DNA of 10,723 bases. It comes from a virus. Lineage: Duplodnaviria > Heunggongvirae > Uroviricota > Caudoviricetes. Every line of letters starts with the position of its first letter. Position 1 is the stretch's first letter. The translations under genes and the position numbers were made by a program. Below, piece after piece: positions 1-10,723 of the stretch. Below the pieces are notes generated by a model that saw only the letters and a program-made list of their open reading frames with translations, did not search any database and was not told the origin of the DNA. The stretch is taken from IMG/VR virus record IMGVR_UViG_2541047736_000008; one strand, 5' to 3'.

Positions 1-108
1 TCCGATATCACGAAGGATAAATGCAGCAAATGCCTGAGCGGCTGTAAGTTTCGCAATAACGTCGGCAACTTTGGCGGCTTCCTTTCCATTAACAAACTTT
101 CGCAGTAA
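1..108 (+). CDS. L: Tail tip protein L, C-terminal fragment (5' end lies outside the window)
   Basis: Frame-1 translation of 1..108 is SDITKDKCSKCLSGCKFRNNVGNFGGFLSINKLSQ followed by TAA at 106..108. This matches the C-terminus of lambda L as I recall it, including the Cys-rich CSKCLSGC motif. Its position immediately upstream of K fits lambda gene order. Confidence 0.85.
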   Translation, partial: SDITKDKCSKCLSGCKFRNNVGNFGGFLSINKLSQ

Positions 109-113
109 ATCCC

Positions 114-857
114 ATGACAGAGACAGAATCAGCGATTCTGGCGCACGCCCGGCGATGTGCGCCAGCGGAGTCGTGCGGCTTCGTGGTGAGAACGCCGGAG
201 GAGGAAAGATATTTTCCCTGCGTGAATATCTCCGGTGAACCGGAGGATTATTTCCGGATGGCTCCGGAGGACTGGCTGCAGGCCAAAATGCAGGGTGAGA
301 TTGTGGCGCTGGTCCACAGTCACCCCGGTGGTCTGCCCTGGCTGAGTGAGGCCGACCGGCGGCTGCAGGTACAGAGTGATTTGCCGTGGTGGCTGGTCTG
401 CCGGAGGGCGATTCACAAGTTCCGCTGTGTACCGCATCTTACCGGGCGGTGCTTTGAGCACGGGGTGACGGACTGTTACACGCTGTTCCGGGATGCTTAC
501 CATCTGGCGGGAATTGAGATGCCGGATTTTCATCGCGGGGATGACTGGTGGCGTAACGGTCAGAATCTCTATCTTGACAATATGGAGGCGACTGGTTTTT
601 ACCGTGTCGCACTGACAGAGGCGCAGCCTGGCGACGTGCTGCTGTGCTGCTTTGGTTCATCGGTGCCGAATCATGCCGCCATTTACTGTGGTGACGGCGA
701 TCTGCTGCACCATATTCCTGAACAACTGAGTAAACGAGAGAGGTATACCGACAAATGGCAGCGACGCACACACTCCCTCTGGCGTCACCGGGCATGGCGC
801 GCATCTGCCTTTACGGGGATTTACAACGATTTGGCCGCCGCATCGACCTTCGTGTGA
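114..857 (+). CDS. K: Tail assembly/tail tip protein K (JAB/MPN metalloprotease-like domain plus NlpC/P60 peptidase-like domain)
   Basis: 247-aa ORF. It carries a JAMM-like motif HSHPGGLPWLSEAD (H-x-H-x7-S-x2-D) with an upstream E-x2-G element (AESCGFVV), then an NlpC/P60-like Cys/His region (VTDCYTLF ... HAAIYCGDGDLLHH). The part from the internal ATG at 258 is near-identical to lambda K as I recall it; the lambda-style start at 258 is preceded by GGAGGA at 245..250. The ATG at 114 lies 5 nt after the L stop, so it could be translationally coupled. The true start (114 or 258) is unresolved. Confidence 0.9.
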   Translation: MTETESAILAHARRCAPAESCGFVVRTPEEERYFPCVNISGEPEDYFRMAPEDWLQAKMQGEIVALVHSHPGGLPWLSEADRRLQVQSDLPWWLVCRRAIHKFRCVPHLTGRCFEHGVTDCYTLFRDAYHLAGIEMPDFHRGDDWWRNGQNLYLDNMEATGFYRVALTEAQPGDVLLCCFGSSVPNHAAIYCGDGDLLHHIPEQLSKRERYTDKWQRRTHSLWRHRAWRASAFTGIYNDLAAASTFV

Positions 858-1402
858 AAACGGGGGCTGAAGCCATCCGGGCGCTGGCCATGCAGATCCC
901 GGCGTTTCGTCAGAAACTGAGCGACGGCTGGTATCAGGTGCGTATTGCCGGGCGTGATGCAGGCGAAAACGAATTATCTGCCCGTCTTAATGAGCCGCTG
1001 GCAAATGGTGCCGTGATCCACATCGTACCGCGCCTGGCGGGGGCTAAAAGTGGCGGCGTATTTCAGGCTGTGCTGGGGGCGACGCTGATTGCGGTGGCAT
1101 GGTGGAACCCTGCAGGCTGGCTGGGTGCTGCGGCTTTATCGGGCATGTATGCGGCAGGAGCCAGTATGATCCTGGGCGGTGTGGCCCAGATGCTGGCACC
1201 GAAAGCCCGGACGCCCACAGCGACCAGCACGGATAACGGTAAGCAGAACGCCTATTTCTCGTCACTGGATAACATGGTTGCTCAGGGCAATGTTTTGCCT
1301 GTTCTGTACGGTGAAATGCGTGTGGGGTCGCGGGTGGTATCTCAGGAGATCAGCACGGCAGACGAAGGTGACGGTGGTCAGGTTGTGGTGATTGGTCGCT
1401 GA
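755..1402 (+). CDS. I: Tail assembly protein I (ubiquitin-like N-terminal domain, hydrophobic central segment)
   Basis: 215-aa ORF beginning MAATHTLPLASPGMARICLYGDLQRFGRRIDLRVKTGAEAIRAL and ending ...YFSSLDNMVAQGNVLPVLYGEMRVGSRVVSQEISTADEGDGGQVVVIGR, matching lambda I at both ends. It overlaps the 3' end of K by 103 nt in another frame, as in lambda. The central Gly/Ala-rich hydrophobic region differs from lambda. An alternative in-frame start is the Met at 794. Confidence 0.85.
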   Translation: MAATHTLPLASPGMARICLYGDLQRFGRRIDLRVKTGAEAIRALAMQIPAFRQKLSDGWYQVRIAGRDAGENELSARLNEPLANGAVIHIVPRLAGAKSGGVFQAVLGATLIAVAWWNPAGWLGAAALSGMYAAGASMILGGVAQMLAPKARTPTATSTDNGKQNAYFSSLDNMVAQGNVLPVLYGEMRVGSRVVSQEISTADEGDGGQVVVIGR

Positions 1403-1420
1403 TGCAAAATGTTTTATGTG

Positions 1421-1440
1421 AAACCGCCTGCTGGCGGTTT
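1421..1440 (+). terminator. Stem-loop in the I-J intergenic region (weak terminator or RNA structure)
   Basis: Perfect 8-bp stem AAACCGCC (1421..1428) with GGCGGTTT (1433..1440) and a 4-nt loop TGCT, followed by a T-rich but interrupted stretch (TGTCGTTTAT). It lies between the I stop (1400..1402) and the J start (1463). It is unlikely to be a strong terminator inside a late operon. Confidence 0.25.
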
Positions 1441-1462
1441 TGTCGTTTATGGAGCATGACGA

Positions 1463-4400
1463 ATGGGTAAAGGCAGCAGTAAGGGGCATACCCCGCGCGA
1501 AGCGAAGGACAACCTGAAGTCCACGCAGTTGCTGAGTGTGATCGATGCCATCAGCGAAGGGCCGATTGAAGGTCCGGTGGATGGGTTAAAAAGCGTGCTG
1601 CTGAACAGTACGCCGGTGCTGGACAGTGAGGGGAATACCAACATCTCTGGTGTCACGGTGGTGTTCCGGGCCGGTGAGCAGGAACAGACACCGCCGGAGG
1701 GATTTGAATCCTCCGGATCCGAGACGGTGCTGGGTACGGAAGTGAAATACGACACGCCGATCACCCGGACCATCACGTCGGCAAACATCGACCGTCTGCG
1801 CTTTACCTTCGGTGTGCAGGCACTGGTGGAAACCACCTCAAAGGGGGACCGGAATCCGTCGGAAGTCCGCCTGCTGGTTCAGATACAGCGTAATGGTGGC
1901 TGGGTGACGGAAAAAGACATCACCATTAAGGGCAAAACCACCTCGCAGTATCTGGCCTCGGTGGTGGTGGATAACCTGCCGCCGCGCCCGTTTAATATCC
2001 GGATGCGCAGGATGACGCCGGACAGCACCACAGACCAGCTGCAGAACAAAACGCTCTGGTCGTCATACACCGAAATCATCGATGTGAAACAGTGCTACCC
2101 GAACACGGCACTGGTCGGCGTGCAGGTGGACTCGGAACAGTTCGGCAGCCAGCAGGTGAGCCGTAATTATCATCTTCGCGGGCGCATTCTGCAGGTGCCG
2201 TCGAACTATAACCCGCAGACGCGACAATACAGCGGTATCTGGGACGGAACGTTTAAGCCAGCATACAGCAACAACATGGCCTGGTGTCTGTGGGATATGC
2301 TGACCCATCCGCGCTACGGCATGGGAAAACGTCTTGGTGCGTCGGATGTGGATAAATGGGCGCTGTATGTCATCGGCCAGTACTGCGACCAGTCGGTGCC
2401 GGACGGCTTTGGCGGCACGGAGCCGCGCATCACCTGTAATGCCTGGCTGACCACGCAGCGTAAGGCGTGGGATGTGCTCAGTGATTTCTGCTCGGCGATG
2501 CGCTGTATGCCGGTATGGAACGGGCAGACGCTGACGTTCGTGCAGGACCGACCATCAGATAAGGTGTGGACCTATAACCGCAGTAATGTGGTGATGCCGG
2601 ATGATGGCGCGCCGTTCCGCTACAGCTTCAGCGCCCTGAAGGACCGCCATAATGCCGTTGAGGTGAACTGGATTGACCCGAACAACGGCTGGGAGACGGC
2701 GACAGAGCTTGTTGAAGATACGCAGGCCATTGCCCGTTACGGTCGTAATGTCACGAAGATGGATGCCTTTGGCTGTACCAGCCGGGGGCAGGCACACCGC
2801 GCCGGGCTGTGGCTGATTAAAACGGAACTGCTGGAGACGCAGACCGTGGATTTCAGCGTGGGTGCTGAAGGGCTTCGCCATGTACCGGGCGATGTCATTG
2901 AAATCTGCGATGATGACTATGCCGGTATCAGCACCGGTGGTCGCGTGCTGGCGGTGAACAGCCAGACCCGGACGCTGACGCTCGACCGTGAAATCACGCT
3001 GCCATCCTCCGGTACCACGCTGATAAGCCTGGTTGACGGAAGTGGTAATCCGGTCAGCGTGGAGGTTCAGTCCGTCACCGACGGACTTAAGGTGAAAGTG
3101 AATCGGGTTCCTGACGGCGTTGCAGAATACAGTGTGTGGGGGCTGAAGTTGCCGACGTTGCGTCAGCGCCTGTTCCGCTGTGTGAGTATCCGTGAGAACG
3201 ATGACGGCACGTATGCCATCACTGCCGTGCAGCATGTACCGGAAAAAGAAGCCATCGTGGATAACGGGGCGCACTTTGACGGCGACCAGAGCGGCACGGT
3301 GAATGGTGTCACGCCGCCAGCGGTGCAGCACCTGACCGCCGAAGTCACCGCAGACAGCGGGGAATACCAGGTGCTGGCGCGCTGGGATACGCCGAAGGTG
3401 GTGAAGGGCGTGAGCTTCCTGCTTCGCCTGACCGTGGCAGCGGATGACGGCCGTGAGCGGCTGGTCAGCACGGCCCGGACGACGGAAACCACTTACCGCT
3501 TCACACAACTGGCTCTGGGGAACTACAGGCTGACAGTCCGGGCAGTAAATGCGTGGGGGCAGCAGGGCGATCCGGCGTCGGTATCGTTCCGGATTGCCGC
3601 ACCGGCAGCGCCGTCGCGGATTGAGCTGACGCCGGGCTATTTTCAGATAACCGCCACGCCGCATCTTGCGGTTTATGACCCGACGGTACAGTTTGAGTTC
3701 TGGTTCTCGGAAAAACGGATTGCGGATATCAGGCAGGTTGAAACCAGCGCGCGTTATCTTGGTACGGCACTGTACTGGATAGCCGCCAGTATCAATATCA
3801 AACCGGGCCATGATTATTATTTTTACGTTCGCAGTGTGAACACCGTTGGCAAATCGGCATTCGTGGAGGCTGTCGGTCAGCCGAGTGATGATGCATCAGG
3901 CTATCTGGATTTTTTCAAAGGCGAGATAGGGAAAACCCATCTGGCTCAGGAGCTGTGGACGCAGATTGATAACGGTCAGCTTGCGCCTGACCTGACTGAA
4001 ATCAGGACGTCCATAACGGATGTCAGCAATGAAATAACACAGACCGTCAATAAGAAACTGGAAGACCAGAGTGCAGCGATCCAGCAGATACAGAAGGTTC
4101 AGGTTGATACAAATAATAACCTGAACAGCATGTGGGCAGTGAAGCTGCAGCAGATGCAGGACGGACGCCTTTATATTGCGGGTATCGGTGCCGGTATTGA
4201 GAACACCCCTGACGGCATGCAGAGTCAGGTGCTGCTGGCAGCAGACAGGATTGCGATGATTAATCCTGCGAATGGCAACACAAAGCCGATGTTTGTTGGT
4301 CAGGGCGATCAGATATTCATGAATGAAGTGTTCCTGAAACGCCTGACGGCCCCCACCATTACCAGCGGCGGTAATCCTCCGGCATTTTCCCTGACATCAG

Positions 4401-4960
4401 ACGGGAGACTGACGGCGAAAAATGCGGATATCAGTGGCAGTGTGAATGCGAACTCAGGAACGCTCAACAATGTCACGATTAACCAGAACTGTACGATTAA
4501 GGGCATGCTGGAGGCGACCCAGGTCAGAGGAGATTTCGTTAAAGCTGTATCAAAAGCCTTCCCGAAAAAAGTCGGTACGTGGGGTAACACGGAAACACCA
4601 AACGGTACGGTTACAGTCACCATCAGCGATGATCATAACTTTGACCGCCAGATTATTATTCCGCCCATTATTTTTAACGGTATAGCGTATGACGATCCGG
4701 GGAGCGGAAATAACCCGGGAGGCACGCGATACACGGGTTATGGTTTTGAAGTTCGCAAAAACGGCGTATTAATCGCATCCAGAGAAACTAAAGGGGCCAT
4801 TCCCGGTAGTTACAGTGCAGTTATTGATATGCCTAGTGGTGGTGGTAGCGTCACTCTGGAGTTTAAGATTTTCCAGAAAGGCAATCAGGGGGCAGGCAAT
4901 ATCACCGACTGTACGGTGATTGTGACCAAAAAAGCGGCTTCCGGCATCAGTATTCGTTGA
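1463..4960 (+). CDS. J: Host specificity protein J (central tail fiber / tail tip; receptor-binding C-terminus)
   Basis: 1165-aa ORF. The N-terminus [44 protein letters not shown] and roughly the first 800 residues match lambda J as I recall it, including the fibronectin-III-like region (about nt 3300..3900). A GGAG lies 8 nt upstream of the ATG. The last roughly 350 aa are divergent. Confidence 0.95.
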
Positions 4961-4982
4961 AATATTTATAACCCCAATAAAT

Positions 4983-5006
4983 GGCGTCAGGAATGACGCC
5001 TTTTTT
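4983..5006 (+). terminator. Rho-independent terminator between J and lom
   Basis: Perfect 7-bp GC-rich stem GGCGTCA (4983..4989) with TGACGCC (4994..5000), GGAA tetraloop, immediately followed by TTTTTT (5001..5006). It starts 23 nt after the J stop codon. Confidence 0.6.
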
Positions 5007-5030
5007 ATTGCAGAAAAGCGAGAGGTAATT

Positions 5031-5630
5031 ATGCGTAAAGTTTGTGCAGCAATTTTGTCCGCAGCCATTTGTCTGGCCGTATCCGGTGCGCCTGCATGGG
5101 CGTCTGAACATCAGTCCACGCTGAGCGCGGGGTATCTTCATGCCTCGACGAACGTCCCCGGCAGTGATGATCTGAACGGGATTAACGTGAAATACCGTTA
5201 TGAGTTTACGGACACACTGGGGCTGGTGACGTCATTCAGCTATGCAGGAGACAAGAATCGCCAGCTGACCCATTACAGCGATACTCGCTGGCATGAAGAT
5301 TCCGTTCGTAACCGCTGGTTCAGCGTAATGGCGGGGCCGTCTGTGCGCGTGAATGAATGGTTCAGCGCGTATGCGATGGCGGGTGTGGCTTACAGCCGTG
5401 TGTCGACTTTCTCCGGGGATTATCTTCGCGTAACTGACAACAAGGGGAAAACGCACGATGTGCTGACCGGAAGTGATGACGGTCGCCACAGCAACACGTC
5501 TCTGGCGTGGGGAGCTGGCGTGCAGTTTAACCCGACCGAATCCGTGGCCATTGATATTGCTTATGAAGGCTCCGGCAGTGGCGACTGGCGCACTGACGGT
5601 TTCATCGTGGGTGTCGGTTATAAGTTCTGA
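5031..5630 (+). CDS. lom: Outer membrane beta-barrel protein Lom (Ail/Lom/OmpX/PagC family); lysogenic-conversion moron
   Basis: 199-aa ORF with a signal-peptide-like N-terminus (MRKVCAAILSAAICLAVSGAPAWA) and a C-terminal aromatic residue (..GVGYKF), typical of small OMP barrels. It is near-identical to lambda Lom as I recall it. AGAGG lies 5 nt upstream of the ATG, and the gene is flanked by intrinsic terminators. Confidence 0.92.
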   Translation: MRKVCAAILSAAICLAVSGAPAWASEHQSTLSAGYLHASTNVPGSDDLNGINVKYRYEFTDTLGLVTSFSYAGDKNRQLTHYSDTRWHEDSVRNRWFSVMAGPSVRVNEWFSAYAMAGVAYSRVSTFSGDYLRVTDNKGKTHDVLTGSDDGRHSNTSLAWGAGVQFNPTESVAIDIAYEGSGSGDWRTDGFIVGVGYKF

Positions 5631-5656
5631 TTAGCCAGGTAACACAGTGTTATGAC

Positions 5657-5683
5657 AGCCCGCCGGTTCAGGCGGGCTTTTTT
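5657..5683 (+). terminator. Rho-independent terminator downstream of lom
   Basis: 7-bp GC stem GCCCGCC (5658..5664) with GGCGGGC (5671..5677), 6-nt loop, followed by TTTTTT (5678..5683). It lies 28 nt after the lom stop. Confidence 0.65.
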
Positions 5684-5694
5684 GTGGGGTGAAT

Positions 5695-8600
5695 ATGGCA
5701 GTAAAGATTTCAGGTGTACTGAAAGACGGCACAGGAAAACCGGTACAGAACTGCACAATCCAGCTGAAAGCAAAACGTAACAGCACCACGGTGGTGGTGA
5801 ACACGCTGGCCTCAGAAAATCCGGATGAAGCCGGGCGTTACAGCATGGACGTTGAGTACGGTCAGTACAGCGTTATTCTGTTGGTGGAAGGATTCCCGCC
5901 GTCACATGCCGGGACCATCACCGTGTATGAAGATTCCCGACCCGGTACGCTGAATGATTTTCTCGGTGCCATGACGGAGGATGATGCCCGTCCGGAGGCT
6001 CTGCGCCGTTTTGAACTGATGGTGGAAGAGGTGACGCGTAACGCGTCCGCGGTGGCACAGAACACGGCAGCCGCGAAGAAGTCAGCCAGTGATGCCGGCA
6101 CATCTGCCCGTGAGGCGGCAACCCATGCGACTGATGCTGCAGGCTCAGCACGCGCAGCCAGCACGTCAGCCGGACAGGCCGCGTCGTCAGCTCAGTCAGC
6201 GTCTTCCAGCGCAGGAACGGCATCAACAAAGGCCACTGAAGCGGAAAAAAGTGCTGCCGCTGCAGAGTCCTCAAAAAGCGCGGCAGCTACCAGTGCCAGT
6301 GCCGCGAAAACGTCAGAAACGAATGCGGCAGCGTCACAACAATCAGCAGCCACTTCTGCATCCACCGCGACTACGAAAGCGTCAGAAGCTGCCACCTCAG
6401 CCCGGGATGCGTCGGCTTCAAAAGAGGCGGCAAAATCATCAGAAACGAACGCATCCTCGAGCGCCAGTAATGCCGCTTCCTCGGCAACGGCGGCAGGAAA
6501 TTCTGCGAAGGCGGCAAAAACGTCCGAGACGAACGCTAAGTCTTCTGAAACGGCAGCGGGACAGAGTGCCTCAGCTGCGGCAGGCTCAAAAACAGCGGCT
6601 GCGTCGTCTGCCAGTGCAGCGTCAACAAGTGCCGGGCAGGCCTCAGCCAGTGCTAGCGCCGCCGGAAAATCGGCAGAAAGCGCCGCATCGTCCGCTTCAA
6701 CAGCCACAACGAAGGCTGGCGAAGCCACTGAACAGGCCAGTGCAGCAGCGAGGTCTGCTTCCGCAGCGAAGACATCGGAGACGAACGCGAAAGCGTCGGA
6801 GACCAGCGCAGAATCCTCAAAAACGGCTGCCGCATCGTCCGCCAGTTCGGCGGCGTCATCGGCATCATCGGCGTCTGCTTCAAAAGATGAGGCGACCAGA
6901 CAAGCGTCCGCAGCGAAGGGCAGCGCCACGACAGCATCCACGAAGGCGACAGAGGCTGCTGGCAGTGCGACGGCGGCAGCACAGAGCAAAAGTACGGCGG
7001 AATCCGCGGCAACGCGCGCCGAGACAGCGGCAAAACGTGCAGAGGATATTGCATCCGCCGTGGCGCTTGAGGATGCGAGCACGACGAAAAAGGGGATAGT
7101 ACAGCTCAGTAGTGCGACTAATAGCACGTCTGAAACGCTGGCGGCAACGCCAAAGGCAGTAAAAGCAGCCAATGACAATGCTGAGAAACGTCTGCAGAAA
7201 GACCAGAACGGCGCTGATATACCCGATAAGGGACGCTTCCTGAACAACATTAACGCGGTCAGTAAAACAGACTTTGCTGATAAGCGTGGTATGCGTTATG
7301 TGCGGGTTAACGCTCCTGCAGGTGCAACATCTGGAAAATATTACCCTGTTGTTGTTATGCGTTCTGCTGGCTCAGTAAGCGAACTGGCATCAAGGGTCAT
7401 TATCACCACGGCAACGCGAATCGCAGGCGATCCGATGAATAACTGCGAGTTTAACGGATTTGTTATGCCTGGTGGCTGGACTGACAGGGGGCGTTATGCT
7501 TATGGAATGTTCTGGCAATATCAAAACAATGAACGAGCCATCCACTCAATAATGATGAGTAATAAGGGCGATGATTTGCGCTCTGTGTTCTATGTTGATG
7601 GCGCTGCTTTCCCTGTTTTTGCGTTTCTCGAAGATGGCCTGTCAATATCCGCACCTGGTGCTGATCTCGTTGTTAATGATACGACCTATAAGTTTGGGGC
7701 AACAAATCCGGCGACTGAATGTATCGCGGCGGACGTTATCCTTGATTTTAAGAGTGGGCGTGGTTTTTATGAGTCTCATTCGTTAATCGTTAACGATAAC
7801 TTGTCGTGCAAAAAACTTTTTGCCACAGACGAAATTGTAGCGCGTGGTGGTAATCAGATTCGAATGATAGGTGGGGAGTATGGTGCATTATGGCGTAATG
7901 ATGGCGCTAAAACTTACCTGCTGCTTACCAATCAAGGTGATGTTTATGGTGGCTGGAATACATTAAGACCGTTTGTTATTGATAACGCAACCGGCGAACT
8001 GGTTATTGGAACCAAACTGTCTGCAAGTCTGAACGGTAACGCATTGACAGCAACAAAGCTGCAAACGCCAAGACTGGTTTCTGGTGTTGAGTTTGATGGT
8101 TCCAAAGATATTACTTTAACCGCCGCGCATGTGGCTGCTTTTGCCAGAAGGGCAACGGATACATATGCCGATGCGGATGGTGGCGTTCCATGGAATGCCG
8201 AATCAGGCGCTTACAATGTCACCCGCTCTGGCAACAGCTATATTCTGGTTAACTTCTATACCGGAGTCGGAAGTTGCCGGACCTTGCAGATGAAGGCGCA
8301 TTACAGAAATGGTGGTCTGTTCTACCGTTCTTCAAGAGACGGTTATGGTTTTGAGGAAGACTGGGCAGAAGTTTATACCTCGAAAAATCTTCCACCAGAA
8401 AGCTACCCAGTCGGCGCACCAATCCCGTGGCCATCAGATACCGTTCCGTCTGGTTATGCCCTGATGCAGGGGCAGACTTTTGACAAATCTGCCTACCCGA
8501 AACTTGCAGCCGCTTATCCGTCAGGCGTGATCCCTGATATGCGTGGCTGGACGATTAAGGGCAAGCCCGCCAGTGGTCGTGCCGTATTGTCTCAGGAACA

Positions 8601-9093
8601 GGACGGCATAAAATCGCATACCCACAGCGCCAGCGCATCCAGTACTGATTTGGGGACGAAAACCACATCGTCGTTTGATTACGGCACTAAATCCACGAAT
8701 AACACTGGTGCGCATACCCATAGTTTAAGTGGCAGCACGAATGCAGCTGGTAATCACAGCCATAGAGATGGCCGTCGATTTAACCCCAGTGTTTTTAAAG
8801 ATACTTATCAATATGGTTATACAAGCTCAGGTCAAAATACCTGGGGTGTGCAAGGCTCAGTAGGTATGTCTACGGGGGCGTTAGCTAATACCAGTACAGA
8901 TGGTAACCATAGCCACTCACTGTCCGGCACAGCAGCATCTGCAGGTGCACACGCACATACTGTCGGTATTGGTGCACACACGCACTCCGTTGCGATTGGT
9001 TCACATGGACACACCATCACCGTTAACGCTGCTGGTAACGCGGAAAACACCGTCAAAAACATCGCATTTAACTATATTGTGAGGCTTGCATAA
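5695..9093 (+). CDS. stf: Side tail fiber protein Stf, intact and long (about 1133 aa) with mosaic domain structure
   Basis: The N-terminus [37 protein letters not shown] matches lambda Stf. The ORF track starts at GTG 5689; I prefer the ATG at 5695 (GGGG/GTG 6 to 8 nt upstream, same start as lambda). The middle carries a phage tail-fiber repeat motif ([30 protein letters not shown]). The C-terminus holds seven HxH motifs (HTH, HTH, HSH, HSH, HAH, HTH, HGH) as in lambda Stf and the T4 gp37 tip, and ends ...[18 protein letters not shown]. Confidence 0.9.
6060..7030 (+). repeat. Degenerate in-frame tandem repeats (Ala/Ser/Thr-rich low-complexity segment) inside stf
   Basis: Recurring K-[TS]-SETNA units (DNA AAAACGTCAGAAACGAATGCG at about 6307, 6433, 6518 and 6770 with variations) are embedded in about 320 aa of A/S/T-rich sequence. 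This composition creates long spurious ORFs in other frames and on the opposite strand (6089..7099 +, 6192..7250 -). Confidence 0.6.
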
Positions 9094-9677
9094 TGGCATT
9101 CAGAATGAGTGAACAACCACGGACCATAAAAATTTATAATCTGCTGGCCGGAACTAATGAATTTATTGGTGAAGGTGACGCATATATTCCGCCTCATACA
9201 GGTCTGCCAGCAAACAGTACCGATATTGCACCGCCAGATATTCCGGCTGGCTTTGTGGCTGTTTTCAACAGTGATGAGGCATCGTGGCATCTCGTTGAAG
9301 ATCATCGGGGAAAAACCGTCTATGACGTGGCTTCCGGCGACGCGTTATTTATTTCTGAACTTGGCTCGTTACCGGAAAATGTCACCTGGTTATCGCCGGA
9401 AGGAGAATATCAGAAGTGGAACGGCACAGCCTGGGTGAAGGATACGGAAGCAGAAAAACTGTTCCGGATCCGGGAGGCGGAAGAAACAAAAAACAGCCTG
9501 ATGCAGGTAGCCAGTGAGCATATAGCGCCACTTCAGGATGCTGTAGATCTGGAGATCGCAACGGAGGAAGAAACCTCATTGCTGGAAGCCTGGAAAAAAT
9601 ATCGGGTGTTGCTGAACCGTGTTGATACATCAACTGCACCTGATATTGAGTGGCCTACGAACCCTGTCAGGGAGTAA
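9093..9677 (+). CDS. tfa: Tail fiber assembly protein Tfa (chaperone for Stf)
   Basis: 194-aa [82 protein letters not shown]..., near-identical to lambda Tfa as I recall it. Its start overlaps the stf stop (TAATG at 9091..9095), consistent with translational coupling. Confidence 0.92.
9512..9677 (+). repeat. Direct repeat copy A (tfa 3' end), paired with 10561..10723
   Basis: About 165 bp with roughly 90 percent identity, by eye, to 10561..10723 in the same orientation. An example shared core is CACTTCAGGATGCTGTAGATCTGGAGATCGCAACGGAGGAAGAAA. The copies diverge in their last 25 nt or so. Confidence 0.8.
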
Positions 9678-9691
9678 TCATTGGGGTTATG

Positions 9692-9724
9692 CCGCAGCAC
9701 GTCTTAAGCAAAAACGTGCTGCGG
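9692..9724. terminator. Inverted-repeat hairpin between convergent tfa (+) and the methyltransferase-like gene (-); candidate bidirectional terminator
   Basis: Perfect 10-bp stem CCGCAGCACG (9692..9701) with CGTGCTGCGG (9715..9724) and a 13-nt loop. It lies 15 nt after the tfa stop and 8 nt after the antisense gene stop (TAG, complement of 9732..9734). A T-run at 9735..9740 lies 10 nt beyond the stem, so the U-tract is not canonical on either strand. Confidence 0.35.
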
Positions 9725-9731
9725 TTGGATG

Positions 9732-10388
9732 CTATTTTTTCCCTGAAGCGGAAAACATTACTACAGTACCTTGAACCTTGGTTTTAACATTCTCGAAATG
9801 CTCTGAGAGTATATGTGTTAAGCCTTCTTCGGAATCTTTTGTGTTTGAAAAGATGCCTTTCTGATTGTAAATGCGCATCAGTTTTTGACCGAAGCTATTG
9901 TGCACAACTCCATCGCCAAGAATTGTGGCTCCGTATAGAGTTCCATCGTCAGTTAAGGCCTGCGCCGCATTGCGTATTACACAGCTTTTTGTAGATATAT
10001 TTCCAGGCAGGCAGTGAAGAAGGTAAAACATGGAAATGGAATCAAATTGACCATGTAACGCCGCGGGATAAGGTTCAAAAACATCATGGCTAATTTTATG
10101 TTTAATTTTTGATTCCCCAGCCCTTGTAGATGCCGCGTTCAGGCTAGCTTCGTTCAAATCCATTAAAGATATCAGACTACTCTCAGGTACGTGAGTAAGG
10201 TAAAACCCAGTTCCAACACCAATATCCAGATGGTTGTTACCTAAATGTTCCAGAAAGTGTGGAAGAAGGTGTTCCTTTGTAGGACATCCCCATGCAAGCC
10301 GATTTGATACTCCCAAAACCCACCAGTCATAAAGCTTTAGGGTAAGTGGTGTGTAAATTTTAGCCCCATCATCTGTGTTTTTTTTCAT
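9732..10388 (-). CDS. Class I (Rossmann-fold) SAM-dependent methyltransferase-like protein; accessory cargo gene, substrate unknown
   Basis: Antisense ORF of 222 aa in the track (9732..10400). I prefer the second in-frame ATG at 10388 (MKKNTDD..., 218 aa) because GGTGA lies 5 nt upstream. It carries a SAM-binding motif I (HLDIGVGTGFY), an acidic residue at the end of the next strand (LISLMDLNE), and motif II/III-like segments (FDSISMFYLLHCLP, LTDDGTLYGATILGDG). There is no DPPY/NPPY motif, so it is not an obvious DNA N6-adenine methyltransferase. The DNA is markedly AT-richer than the tail genes. From memory, its placement between tfa copies resembles the tfaD-ybcY-tfaX arrangement of the E. 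coli K-12 DLP12 prophage; that is unverified. Confidence 0.7.
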   Translation of the reverse strand: MKKNTDDGAKIYTPLTLKLYDWWVLGVSNRLAWGCPTKEHLLPHFLEHLGNNHLDIGVGTGFYLTHVPESSLISLMDLNEASLNAASTRAGESKIKHKISHDVFEPYPAALHGQFDSISMFYLLHCLPGNISTKSCVIRNAAQALTDDGTLYGATILGDGVVHNSFGQKLMRIYNQKGIFSNTKDSEEGLTHILSEHFENVKTKVQGTVVMFSASGKK

Positions 10389-10400
10389 TGATTTCACCAT

Positions 10401-10448
10401 GTTATAGTTTTGTTTGTGAATTAAATCAATTATGGCGATGAATTACAA
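10401..10448 (-). promoter_or_regulatory. Candidate sigma70 promoter(s) for the antisense methyltransferase-like gene
   Basis: On the minus strand: TTGTAA (10448..10443), 17-nt spacer, TTTAAT (10425..10420). An overlapping alternative is TTGATT (10429..10424), 17-nt spacer, TATAAC (10406..10401). The region is AT-rich and intergenic. Neither is validated; the second would put the transcription start at or beyond the first ATG. Confidence 0.3.
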
Positions 10449-10456
10449 GGGGTTAA

Positions 10457-10723
10457 ATGCTGCCGCAGCATAGCGATATTGAAATAGCCTGGTATGCTTC
10501 GATACAGCAGGAGCCGAATGGCTGGAAGACCGTCACCACACAGTTCTACATCCAGGAATTCAGTGAGCATATTGTGCCACTTCAGGATGCTGTAGATCTG
10601 GAGATCGCAACGGAGGAAGAAAACTCGTTGCTGGAAGCCTGGAAGAAGTATCGGGTGTTGCTGAACCGTGTTAATACAACAACTGCACCTGATATTGAGT
10701 GGCCGACTTCACCTGCAGAGTAA
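10457..10723 (+). CDS. Short tail-fiber-assembly-family ORF (Tfa C-terminal domain only); possibly a remnant of a second tfa gene
   Basis: 88-aa ORF whose last 53 aa or so ([49 protein letters not shown]...) are about 90 percent identical to the Tfa C-terminus. The N-terminal 35 aa ([35 protein letters not shown]) are unrelated. AAGGGG lies 4 nt upstream of the ATG and an in-frame TAA sits immediately before it. The stop codon is the last three bases of the window. Confidence 0.5.
10561..10723 (+). repeat. Direct repeat copy B (tfa 3' end), paired with 9512..9677
   Basis: Same-orientation copy of the tfa 3' end with roughly 90 percent identity over about 140 nt, then divergence at the extreme 3' end (TACGAACCCTGTCAGGGAGTAA versus GACTTCACCTGCAGAGTAA). 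Confidence 0.8.

Follow-up and report, generated by a model that had tools for sequence, protein, structure and literature searches.

How does an AT-rich gene for a methyltransferase-like protein come to lie between a phage tail fibre assembly gene and a second copy of that gene's 3' end, and what does it do there? The question is raised by a stretch of 10,723 nucleotides from a tailed virus (IMG/VR record IMGVR_UViG_2541047736_000008), here referred to as the window. An earlier reading of this DNA from its letters alone (the sequence-only reading) proposed that the tail module ends with tfa and is followed by a convergent, AT-rich gene of about 218 codons. The features are indeed arranged in this way:

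5689–9093, plus strand: stf, the side tail fibre gene (1134 aa), final structural gene ahead of tfa in the ORF list
9093–9677, plus strand: tfa, full-length tail fibre assembly gene (194 aa; Pfam Caudo_TAP, E = 2.7e-45)
9501–9658, plus strand: direct repeat copy 1, the 3' part of tfa (repeat search and alignments)
9691–9723, no strand: hairpin between the convergent stop codons of tfa and the methyltransferase gene (folding z-scores)
9732–10388, minus strand: MT, the methyltransferase gene (218 aa), intact ybcY homologue, predicted class I SAM-dependent, convergent to tfa
10378–10385, minus strand: run of eight A (A8) immediately 3' of the MT start codon at 10388 (sequence and alignment with K-12)
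10401–10456, minus strand: divergent promoter spacer of 56 bp with candidate sigma-70 hexamers for MT (consensus scan and sequence)
10457–10723, plus strand: tfa', a truncated tfa-like, tfaX-like ORF (88 aa; partial Caudo_TAP match)
10550–10707, plus strand: direct repeat copy 2, within tfa', 92% identical to copy 1

Judged by alignment, 9093–10723 is an intact version of the ybcY–tfaX unit of the E. coli K-12 prophage DLP12, in the order tfa–MT–tfa'. The best overall explanation, which we consider probable, is that this intact unit carries a moron for a methyltransferase of the small-molecule or lipid type and is exchanged through the 3' ends of tfa genes. The arrangement is already known, annotated and ordinary, and carries little weight as a discovery. 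The earlier suggestion that the intact state would be new does not hold, since RefSeq already annotates the intact gene, under the name "class I SAM-dependent methyltransferase", in thousands of genomes. The locus has modest interest in that a conserved methyltransferase under purifying selection is carried by roughly 70% of complete E. coli genomes and is found also on phages, plasmids and IS-flanked islands.

Layout and proposed expression of the locus

The site of the unit is the accessory ('b') region, directly past the tail-fibre genes of lambdoid phages. CDSs homologous to stf are annotated as 'prophage tail fiber N-terminal domain-containing protein' or 'side tail fiber protein', and the tfa product, with the C-terminus ...TNPVRE, matches PHROG 105 ('tail fiber assembly') with E = 3e-101. 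MT appears in the ORF list as 9732–10400 (minus strand, 222 aa), using an in-frame upstream ATG at 10400. The true start is likely the ATG at 10388, giving a protein of 218 aa, which is the most frequent length among the homologues; GGTGA is found 5 nt upstream of this ATG. The GC content of MT is 41% compared with 54% for positions 1–9677, and the predicted composition shift is clear in sliding windows, where GC drops to 37–43% over 9700–10500. Homologues in the seven non-E. coli hosts examined have GC contents of 39–47%, mostly 39–41%, with Yersinia at 43% and Salmonella at 47%. Atypical GC content and the occurrence of filled and empty alleles at one site (see below) are both moron-like traits of MT.

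A consensus scan of the minus strand upstream of MT yielded the candidate promoter TTAACC-16-CATAAT (10456–10429), and a second candidate, TTGATT-17-TATAAC (10429–10401), was read from the sequence. Promoter sequence by itself proves nothing here, because the two sigma-70-like matches upstream of MT equal the expectation from shuffled sequence (1.9). Genomic SELEX located an RpoD-holoenzyme site, marked H-NS, in the ybcY<>tfaX spacer of K-12, with the same TTGATT-17-TATAAC hexamers (PMC3946193). At the other end of the gene, the hairpin at 9691–9723 has a stem of 12–14 bp and folding z-scores of −3.9 (plus strand) and −5.1 (minus strand). A terminator scan did not call it, as no U-tract directly follows, and we regard it as a candidate 3'-end or terminator element shared by tfa and MT. 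We infer that transcription of MT would start at a sigma-70 promoter of its own within the 56-bp spacer, probably silenced by H-NS, and would stop at the hairpin common to tfa. With its own promoter and an end at a shared hairpin, MT would be a gene of the moron type.

It is also possible, though we consider it unlikely, that MT serves an early lytic or anti-defence function instead of being a moron expressed in the lysogen, and acts in the course of infection on a metabolite or signalling molecule of the host. The b-region genes of lambda are reached by antiterminated leftward transcription through att. In the circular phage MT would lie downstream of int and could be reached by such (pL-type) transcription. 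In Kati and ev243, MT shares its strand with int, the recombination genes and the early-left operon, which makes expression by read-through in lytic growth no less plausible than lysogenic expression. The nearly identical allele in all 15 lambdoid phage records that carry MT (at least 99% amino acid identity) suggests recent spread with active phages. Against this account, several kilobases and several genes separate int from MT, some of them in the opposite orientation (the AppY-like regulator and tfa'); homologues of MT thrive as stand-alone chromosomal or plasmid genes outside any phage context; and the RpoD site in K-12 is directly upstream of the MT homologue. Known defence and counter-defence models gave no match, the sole hit among the PADLOC anti-phage defence models, mad2, being not significant (14.3 bits, E = 0.003).

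Distribution and selection

At a coverage of at least 80%, 3797 of the 5426 complete E. coli genomes (~70%) contain MT together with its flanks, at 95–99.6% identity and in up to four copies per genome, and the whole tfa–MT–tfa' block of the window allele is found in 1493 genomes. The main intact cluster holds 6589 member sequences. An exhaustive profile search collected 1752 clusters, forming a broad family with generic names in the source databases. Homologues occur as stand-alone genes on chromosomes, on a plasmid, and on IS-flanked or effector-rich islands, and their neighbourhoods in Salmonella, Enterobacter, Yersinia, Aeromonas, Citrobacter and E. albertii contain no conserved partner gene. 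The N-terminal extensions of longer family members contain no Pfam domain, and domain fusions within the family gave no functional clue. One fungal relative of 743 aa carries RCC1 repeats and may be a fused gene model.

The frequency of MT could be a simple consequence of its position next to a highly exchanged tail-fibre module, with the unit as a neutral hitch-hiker of no benefit to its carriers. Its pseudogene state in K-12 and truncated variants such as a 161-aa cluster with 445 members are in line with such neutrality, as is the absence of an effect of the K-12 ybcY mutant in the single screen that names it (PMC2408971). The dN/dS ratio of MT is 0.11–0.22 over the informative comparisons, however, which shows purifying selection on the encoded enzyme, and the intact cluster is large. 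Moreover, 45 positions are invariant across Enterobacterales, the family extends to Aeromonas, Acidobacteria and fungi, and MT moves without tail genes on plasmids and IS-flanked islands. A neutral origin of the frequency is accordingly improbable in our estimate.

The literature searched contained no functional study of ybcY, tfaX or the MT protein, which is likely due in part to the dead copy in the laboratory strain. The papers found on tfaX deal with the spacer between tfaX and appY, beyond the limits of this window.

The repeated tfa end and a proposed exchange of the unit

The sequence-only reading described a direct repeat of the tfa 3' end at 9512–9677 and 10561–10723. The repeat and its orientation stand, and the coordinates are corrected to 9501–9658 and 10550–10707. 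The two copies of 158 nt are spaced 1049 nt apart and are identical at 145 of 158 positions, with a longest exact run of 47 nt, far beyond chance. This is the sole repeat of at least 25 nt within the window, where the repeat search detected no inverted repeats; nor does the ORF list contain a recombinase between 9093 and 10723. The C-terminal domain of Tfa is a conserved, helical trimerisation module of the Tfa family (PMC9608196), and it is this conserved helical domain that copy 1 encodes. Matches of the repeat to the Rfam family IS009 were rejected as evidence of an sRNA because they lie inside coding sequence, in tfaD of K-12 and in tfa and tfa' of the window.

The second ORF is truncated, as had been proposed: only residues 31–87 of tfa' match Caudo_TAP, at profile positions 75–131 of 131. 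A unique 5' part (10457–10549) is fused to the tfa C-terminal domain, and the N-terminal 30 aa of the product are unrelated to Tfa. The product matches PHROG 2341 over its full length and, with residues 3–37, PHROG 3893. The variable N-terminal fibre-binding domain of Tfa proteins is missing, which places tfa' outside the Tfa family proper, and PGAP flags a homologue as a pseudogene lacking its N-terminus. From these comparisons tfa' is probably a remnant, a leftover tfa end without the fibre-binding domain.

We consider it quite improbable that tfa' is functional and not a scar, either as a mini-chaperone consisting of the trimerisation domain or as what is left of a tail-fibre switch of the invertible Pin/Gin type. 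Either way, a role in tail-fibre biology would maintain the repeat. In the window the 88-aa ORF is intact; it belongs to a PHROG family of the same length and has AAGGGG ahead of its ATG, and Pin-type invertases occupy the same position after tfa in the related phages Kati and PhiR34_1. Premature stops interrupt the homologues in K-12 and Kati, however, chromosomes with the empty allele manage with one tfa, the fibre-binding domain is missing, and the repeat copies are direct, not inverted. An origin of the unit as an invertible segment was rejected for the same reason, the copies being direct and the window free of inverted repeats. The features of site-specific cassettes (integron cassette, transposon or invertible segment) are absent, and the junctions fall within ordinary homology.

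The proposal that the cassette is carried by recombination between tfa genes is supported by a comparison of junctions. At one chromosomal site adjoining potB, both filled (tfa–MT–tfa') and empty (tfa only) alleles occur. For a chimeric query, in which tfa up to and including repeat copy 1 was followed directly by the sequence beyond tfa', contiguous matches exist in many genomes, including TUM9757, O104:H4 and E2348/69, where the annotation shows tfa followed by potB and no MT. The filled/empty junctions fall within the tfa repeat, and the breakpoints vary between lineages. In alignments, the tfa' of strain IrN resembles ev243 tfaX up to a point about 50 nt ahead of its stop and follows the empty-allele sequence from there on; the tfa' of the window becomes tfa-type right where the homology begins. 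Junctions inside the repeat with lineage-specific breakpoints indicate that the repeat works as a recombination arm or scar.

These results lead us to propose that the tfa 3' end, by virtue of its conservation, may serve as a homology arm for homologous recombination. Unequal exchange between a tfa–MT–tfa' phage and a tfa-only phage would insert the 1049-bp unit, recombination between the two tfa copies within one genome would delete it, and no dedicated recombinase would be needed for gain or loss. The filled and empty alleles fit insertion and deletion alike, and the direction of the event cannot be read from them. The locus offers a clean natural example of a conserved tfa 3' end as homology arm for the gain and loss of lambdoid cargo, with exchange beside the tail-fibre module proceeding without a dedicated recombinase.

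The enzyme, its likely substrates and known systems

The MT protein had been described as a SAM-methyltransferase-like Rossmann-fold protein, and profile and structure comparisons agree. The Pfam families Methyltransf_12, Methyltransf_23, Methyltransf_25 and Methyltransf_11 exceed their cut-offs. The glycine-rich (GxGxG) motif I (HLDIGVGTGFY), characteristic of the end of strand 1 in this superfamily, is present, with D55, G57, G59 and G61 invariant across 90 homologues; equally invariant is D77 (in LMDLN), the acidic residue that closes strand E72–77 in the AlphaFold2 secondary structure and corresponds to the ribose-hydroxyl-binding residue after strand 2 of class I enzymes. The AlphaFold2 model (pLDDT 90.8) consists of one 218-aa domain with a seven-stranded alpha/beta fold resembling those of solved class I methyltransferases, and by its predicted fold the protein is a class I SAM-dependent methyltransferase. 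It matches PHROG 2132 over 218 of 218 positions (E = 7e-157), and this full-length match and the conserved position adjoining tfaX identify it as a YbcY family member.

The best Foldseek match of the model is a bacterial phosphatidylethanolamine N-methyltransferase (8ys9, TM-score 0.62–0.66), and small molecules or lipids are the substrates of the best neighbours by structure and profile. The structural neighbours form a flat list at 12–21% identity and TM-scores of 0.55–0.66, for which reason the support they give to a substrate class is weak and does not discriminate. Sub-threshold NCBIfam matches to CpaM, PmtA and RquA recur in 64, 59 and 54 of the 90 family members, respectively. For the MT protein itself the PmtA score is 15.7 bits (E = 0.01), below the equivalog cut-off of 390 bits, and RquA and CpaM reach 17 bits compared with cut-offs of 175–180. 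No specific enzyme family exceeds its NCBIfam cut-off, either for this protein or for any of the 90 members, and sequence and profile searches against the PDB gave weak matches only (names across NCBIfam and PDB: UbiG, JHAMT, CpaM, PmtA and RquA).

A role as a nucleic-acid methyltransferase, acting on DNA for protection from restriction or on rRNA or tRNA to alter host translation, is highly improbable: phage orphan methyltransferases are common, and CmoA, Trm9, METTL6 and RsmC are among the distant structural or profile matches, but a regular-expression search found neither (D/N/S)PP(Y/F/W) nor PCQ, in agreement with the sequence-only reading, no DNA-methylase family of Pfam or NCBIfam matches, the single domain leaves no target-recognition or RNA-binding module, and the best neighbours have other substrates. 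On its motifs and model, the protein is not a DNA methyltransferase and would be of the small-molecule or lipid type. Its substrate would be a low-molecular-weight cell metabolite or a lipid head group, probably hydrophobic or amphipathic. One could speculate further that the MT protein methylates lipids or quinones and, encoded on phages and plasmids, remodels the E. coli envelope in lysogens, although so specific a role is doubtful. N-methylation of phosphatidylethanolamine or of another ethanolamine-bearing envelope component would be an example. If true, lysogenic conversion of a new kind would be present in most E. coli strains and could have gone unnoticed because the K-12 copy is a pseudogene.

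Among known enzymes, PmtA, UbiG, RquA, JHAMT and CpaM (~200 aa) share with the MT protein a single-domain class I fold of about 210 aa and an N-terminal helical lid, but its scores are far under the cut-offs of the PmtA, RquA and CpaM families and it is a member of none of them.

The closest known locus is tfaD–ybcY–tfaX (b0561–b0563) of DLP12, which the sequence-only reading had correctly named. Gene order and orientation are the same as in the window, the MT stretch and spacer are about 99% identical in nucleotide sequence, and tfa upstream shares its 3' end (TNPVRE) and its hairpin with the window. The DLP12 ybcY differs in being a pseudogene, having lost two nucleotides at the ATG/A8 run, the G of ATG and one A, and the K-12 tfaX is shortened to 61 aa by a stop, whereas both ORFs are intact in the window. 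The 3' part of the window tfa' is of the 'resident tfa' type, unlike the K-12 tfaX type.

Phages ev243 and Kati, like K-12, match the MT stretch of the window at about 99% identity. The inducible lambdoid phages ev243, 2G7b, Kati, Turner and the PhiR series carry MT at 99–100% protein identity, followed by the same tfaX-like ORF (PHROG 2132 + PHROG 2341), between the tail-fibre genes and att/int and beside ompT, AppY-like or hydrolase genes. Unlike in the window, a Pin invertase and small ORFs intervene between tfa and MT in Kati, and ev243 has a different fibre module ahead of MT, with tfa reduced to a 3' fragment. Homology of the window with Kati begins at the hairpin (9691–9723), which is the left edge of the shared unit. 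Accessory neighbours of the unit are ompT, the AppY-like regulator and int in Kati and ev243, cdtABC in strain 2017-02-2CC, and the prophage end adjoining potB in strain IrN.

MT resembles the classical lambdoid morons (lom, bor, and cargo of the cdt or nleG type) as a single AT-rich gene with a candidate promoter of its own, located in a late or accessory region, opposite to its neighbours and variably present in similar phages. Those morons encode envelope proteins, toxins and effectors with known phenotypes, whereas the product of MT is predicted to be a cytoplasmic enzyme.

Layout of the tfa-methyltransferase unit

The window is the terminal part of the late region of a lambdoid phage, in which the tail-tip genes, J and lom are followed by stf and tfa. 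The sequence-only reading placed a methyltransferase-like ORF convergent to tfa, then a truncated tfa-like ORF (tfa') and a direct repeat of the tfa 3' end, and this layout is present with small shifts in coordinates:

5689-9093, + strand: side tail fibre gene stf (ORF list)
9093-9677, + strand: full-length tfa (Pfam Caudo_TAP, E = 2.7e-45)
9732-10400, - strand: methyltransferase ORF, 222 aa from the upstream ATG, its stop side 54 bases past the tfa stop (ORF list)
56 bp: spacer between the methyltransferase gene and tfa'
10457-10723, + strand: tfa', an 88-aa ORF of which the last 57 residues alone match Tfa (Caudo_TAP profile positions 75-131 of 131)

We take the methyltransferase gene to be 9732-10388, starting at the second in-frame ATG (10388), because its homologues are mostly 218 aa long and begin there and because GGTGA precedes this codon at 5-nt spacing. 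The AT-richness attributed to the gene is borne out by a GC content of 41% compared to 54% elsewhere in the window, with a drop to 37-43% in sliding windows.

The tfa 3' end is directly repeated at 9501-9658 and 10550-10707 (158 nt, 145 of 158 positions identical, longest exact run 47 nt, starts 1049 nt apart). This is the sole repeat of at least 25 nt in the window, and the repeat search found no inverted repeats there. Tfa proteins bind the fibre through a variable N-terminal domain and trimerise through a conserved, helical C-terminal one (PMC9608196). The repeat is coding DNA for the C-terminal domain, which explains why it is common to otherwise different tfa alleles. The downstream copy is most simply read as a scar, since it is without the fibre-binding domain, takes its first 30 residues from an unrelated small-ORF family (PHROG 3893, with related sequence in phage Ayreon and Klebsiella phages), and is interrupted in E. 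coli K-12 and phage Kati, whose tfaX-like ORFs show premature stops when aligned with the window.

Both tfa copies match Rfam IS009 (RF02111, listed as an sRNA gene) at 9436-9634 and 10480-10683 on the + strand, scoring 224.5 and 125.8 bits, above the gathering score of 117 bits. The K-12 match (L002, 7857-8055) lies wholly within the tfaD coding sequence, and the family may model conserved tfa coding sequence and not a separate RNA. A 45-aa ORF at 9650-9787 (+ strand), covering the tfa stop, a hairpin and the methyltransferase 3' end in antisense, is RefSeq hypothetical protein WP_001309429.1 in many genomes and looks like an over-prediction. The stf protein contains a stretch of about 340 residues (approximately 130-470) in which nearly every residue is Ala, Ser, Thr, Lys or Glu, arranged as loose repeats.

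The methyltransferase and its family

The suggested SAM-methyltransferase fold is supported by Pfam, where the protein falls among the generic class I methyltransferase domains (37.6 bits for Methyltransf_12, whose cut-off is 30), and by a confident AlphaFold2 model built with 90 homologues (pLDDT 90.8, pTM 0.87), which predicts one domain of Rossmann type that has two helices at its N-terminus. Invariant among the 90 homologues are D55, G57, G59 and G61 of motif I, the strand-2 acidic residue D77, H101, an aromatic-rich N-terminal segment (Y12, Y20, D21, W22, W23, W33) and H125-C126 after strand 4; D102 is nearly invariant. The reading that DNA-methyltransferase signatures are lacking also holds, as neither such a motif nor a target-recognition domain was found by Pfam, motif search or in the model, and the protein matched no known defence system.

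The top Foldseek match is bacterial phosphatidylethanolamine N-methyltransferase (TM-score 0.62-0.66). Sequence and profile searches of the PDB returned only juvenile-hormone acid methyltransferase and UbiG (E 1e-5 to 1e-3). No NCBIfam match came near any cut-off; CpaM, Legionella-type PmtA and RquA are each matched weakly by 54-64 of the 90 family members. We conclude that the protein belongs to an uncharacterised family of methyltransferases of the small-molecule or lipid type. Our best guess, and a weak one, is that its substrate is hydrophobic or amphipathic; that it methylates a lipid or quinone and so remodels the lysogen's envelope is a long shot. The literature search found no functional study of the gene or of ybcY, its K-12 homologue. 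In one screen a K-12 ybcY mutant was without effect (PMC2408971), which is uninformative because the K-12 copy is a pseudogene.

The family comprises 1752 clusters (50% identity) at E<=1e-3 and 416 at E<=1e-30, carries generic names only, and extends to Aeromonas, Acidobacteria and lichen-forming fungi. The main intact cluster has 6589 member sequences, with truncated variants in the minority, and dN/dS is 0.11-0.22 against homologues at 65-90% protein identity. Homologues occur in the following settings:

core-like chromosomal region, Salmonella and Enterobacter
plasmid-like contig with KfrA and CcdAB
between IS elements, Aeromonas and other contigs
E. albertii island with NleG, OspG and Cdt
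Citrobacter prophage remnant

In all contexts examined the gene stands alone, with no conserved neighbour. Its GC content is 39-41% in six of seven hosts examined outside E. coli (Yersinia 43%, Salmonella 47%), even with 51% flanks, and in most of them it therefore behaves like cargo that moves horizontally. This is a real, selected and mobile gene. At individual loci it stays at 39-41% in Enterobacter, Aeromonas, E. albertii, Citrobacter and the Salmonella plasmid-like contig, with flanks of 42-51% (L005-L008, L013, L015-L017, L019); the Salmonella chromosomal copy (47%) alone appears to have drifted towards host composition. In two unrelated contexts, Yersinia (L010/L011, 7170-7361) and L016 (2328-3158), the homologue has an Rce1-like/CPBP gene (CAAX-protease family) no more than about 1 kb away, perhaps by chance, perhaps through a weak link in function.

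Predicted expression signals

Two sigma-70-like promoters are predicted in the 56-bp spacer upstream of the methyltransferase gene, and the convergent genes have a hairpin in common:

10456-10429: TTAACC-16-CATAAT
10429-10401: TTGATT-17-TATAAC
9691-9723: very stable hairpin common to tfa and the methyltransferase gene (z = -3.9 and -5.1)

Matches in the promoter scan are no more numerous than in shuffled sequence. For the ybcY<>tfaX spacer, genomic SELEX in K-12 lists a site of the RpoD holoenzyme that carries an H-NS mark and has exactly the TTGATT-17-TATAAC hexamers (PMC3946193), which is independent support for the predicted promoter. A live alternative is read-through from the early-left operon, which would reach the gene during lytic growth, since int and the gene share a strand in phages ev243 and Kati.

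A terminator role of the hairpin is uncertain because no U-tract directly follows it. The Shigella sRNA family CssrB is weakly matched at 9660-9723 on the + strand (29.6 bits, below the gathering score of 76; E=0.0012), which probably reflects the hairpin alone. In strain IrN (L001; 13725-13957, potB 13957-14820) the gene shares its strand with potA-potB and lies about 550 bp beyond the potB stop; read-through from the host pot operon could occur in potB-adjacent lysogens, as there is no obvious intrinsic terminator between potB and the gene in that direction.

Recombination at the tfa 3' end and the DLP12 counterpart

The proposal that the cassette is carried by recombination between tfa genes agrees with the existence of filled and empty alleles with breakpoints inside the repeat. 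A chimeric query was assembled from the IrN locus by joining tfa, taken as far as the end of repeat copy 1, with the DNA after repeat copy 2. It gave one contiguous match at 97-99% identity in many genomes (for example TUM9757, O104:H4 strains and E2348/69, where annotated tfa is followed by potB with no methyltransferase gene), and in IrN-like genomes it matched in two pieces with the methyltransferase gene between them. The same prophage end thus exists filled and empty, the difference being exactly the 1049-bp repeat-bounded unit.

Alignment of the repeat copies shows that the IrN tfa' is of the ev243 tfaX type over the first ~100 nt of homology and changes to the empty-allele sequence ~50 nt before the stop; the tfa' of the window resembles the resident tfa from the start of homology onward. 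Crossover points inside the same homology therefore differ between lineages, which we read as a signature of repeated homologous recombination and not of a site-specific element. The latter was rejected: the ORF list and repeat search show no recombinase or terminal inverted repeats in the unit, and crossovers are spread within the homology. The data are compatible with both directions: unequal exchange with a donor phage would insert the unit, and recombination between the two repeat copies would delete it and leave a hybrid but intact tfa.

In ev243 and Kati the accessory genes that separate the tail-fibre genes from att/int include, besides the unit, ompT and genes for an alpha/beta hydrolase and an AppY-like regulator. 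The unit closes the prophage ~230 bp from potB in IrN and is followed by cdtABC in strain 2017-02-2CC, and related phages hold other content after tfa (a Pin-type recombinase or unannotated DNA). This variable stretch is the accessory region in which lambdoid phages carry their cargo. In the 2017-02-2CC prophage (L023) a macro-domain gene (3091-3981) is inserted between stf and tfa, and the cytolethal distending toxin operon (6194-8294 region) begins ~580 bp past the tfa' remnant; the E. albertii homologue (L017) is also near a CdtA gene.

The comparison with the tfaD-ybcY-tfaX layout of the cryptic K-12 prophage DLP12 proved correct: the order there is tfaD, the minus-strand pseudogene ybcY, tfaX, and then appY and ompT. 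The window, K-12, ev243 and Kati share ~99% nucleotide identity over the methyltransferase gene and spacer, while the flanks diverge. In K-12 the gene is disrupted by the loss of 2 nt at the ATG/A8 run (window 10378-10388, - strand). This homopolymer directly follows the probable start codon and could be a slippage hot spot that switches the gene off.

The suggestion that an intact state would be new did not stand. Of 5426 complete E. coli genomes, 3797 carry the gene with its immediate flanks (9680-10460, at least 80% coverage) at 95-99.6% identity, in up to four copies per genome, nearly always annotated as "class I SAM-dependent methyltransferase", and the entire tfa-methyltransferase-tfa' block of the window's allele is found in 1493 genomes. 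The allele also occurs at 99% amino-acid identity or more in 15 phage records, all from E. coli lambdoid phages, and PHROGs already holds families for the methyltransferase (2132) and the 88-aa ORF (2341), listed there with function unknown. Given this wide presence and annotation, neither the arrangement nor the intact ybcY-type gene is new, and recombination at the tfa 3' repeat is the usual mosaicism of lambdoid phages, of which the locus is a good illustration.
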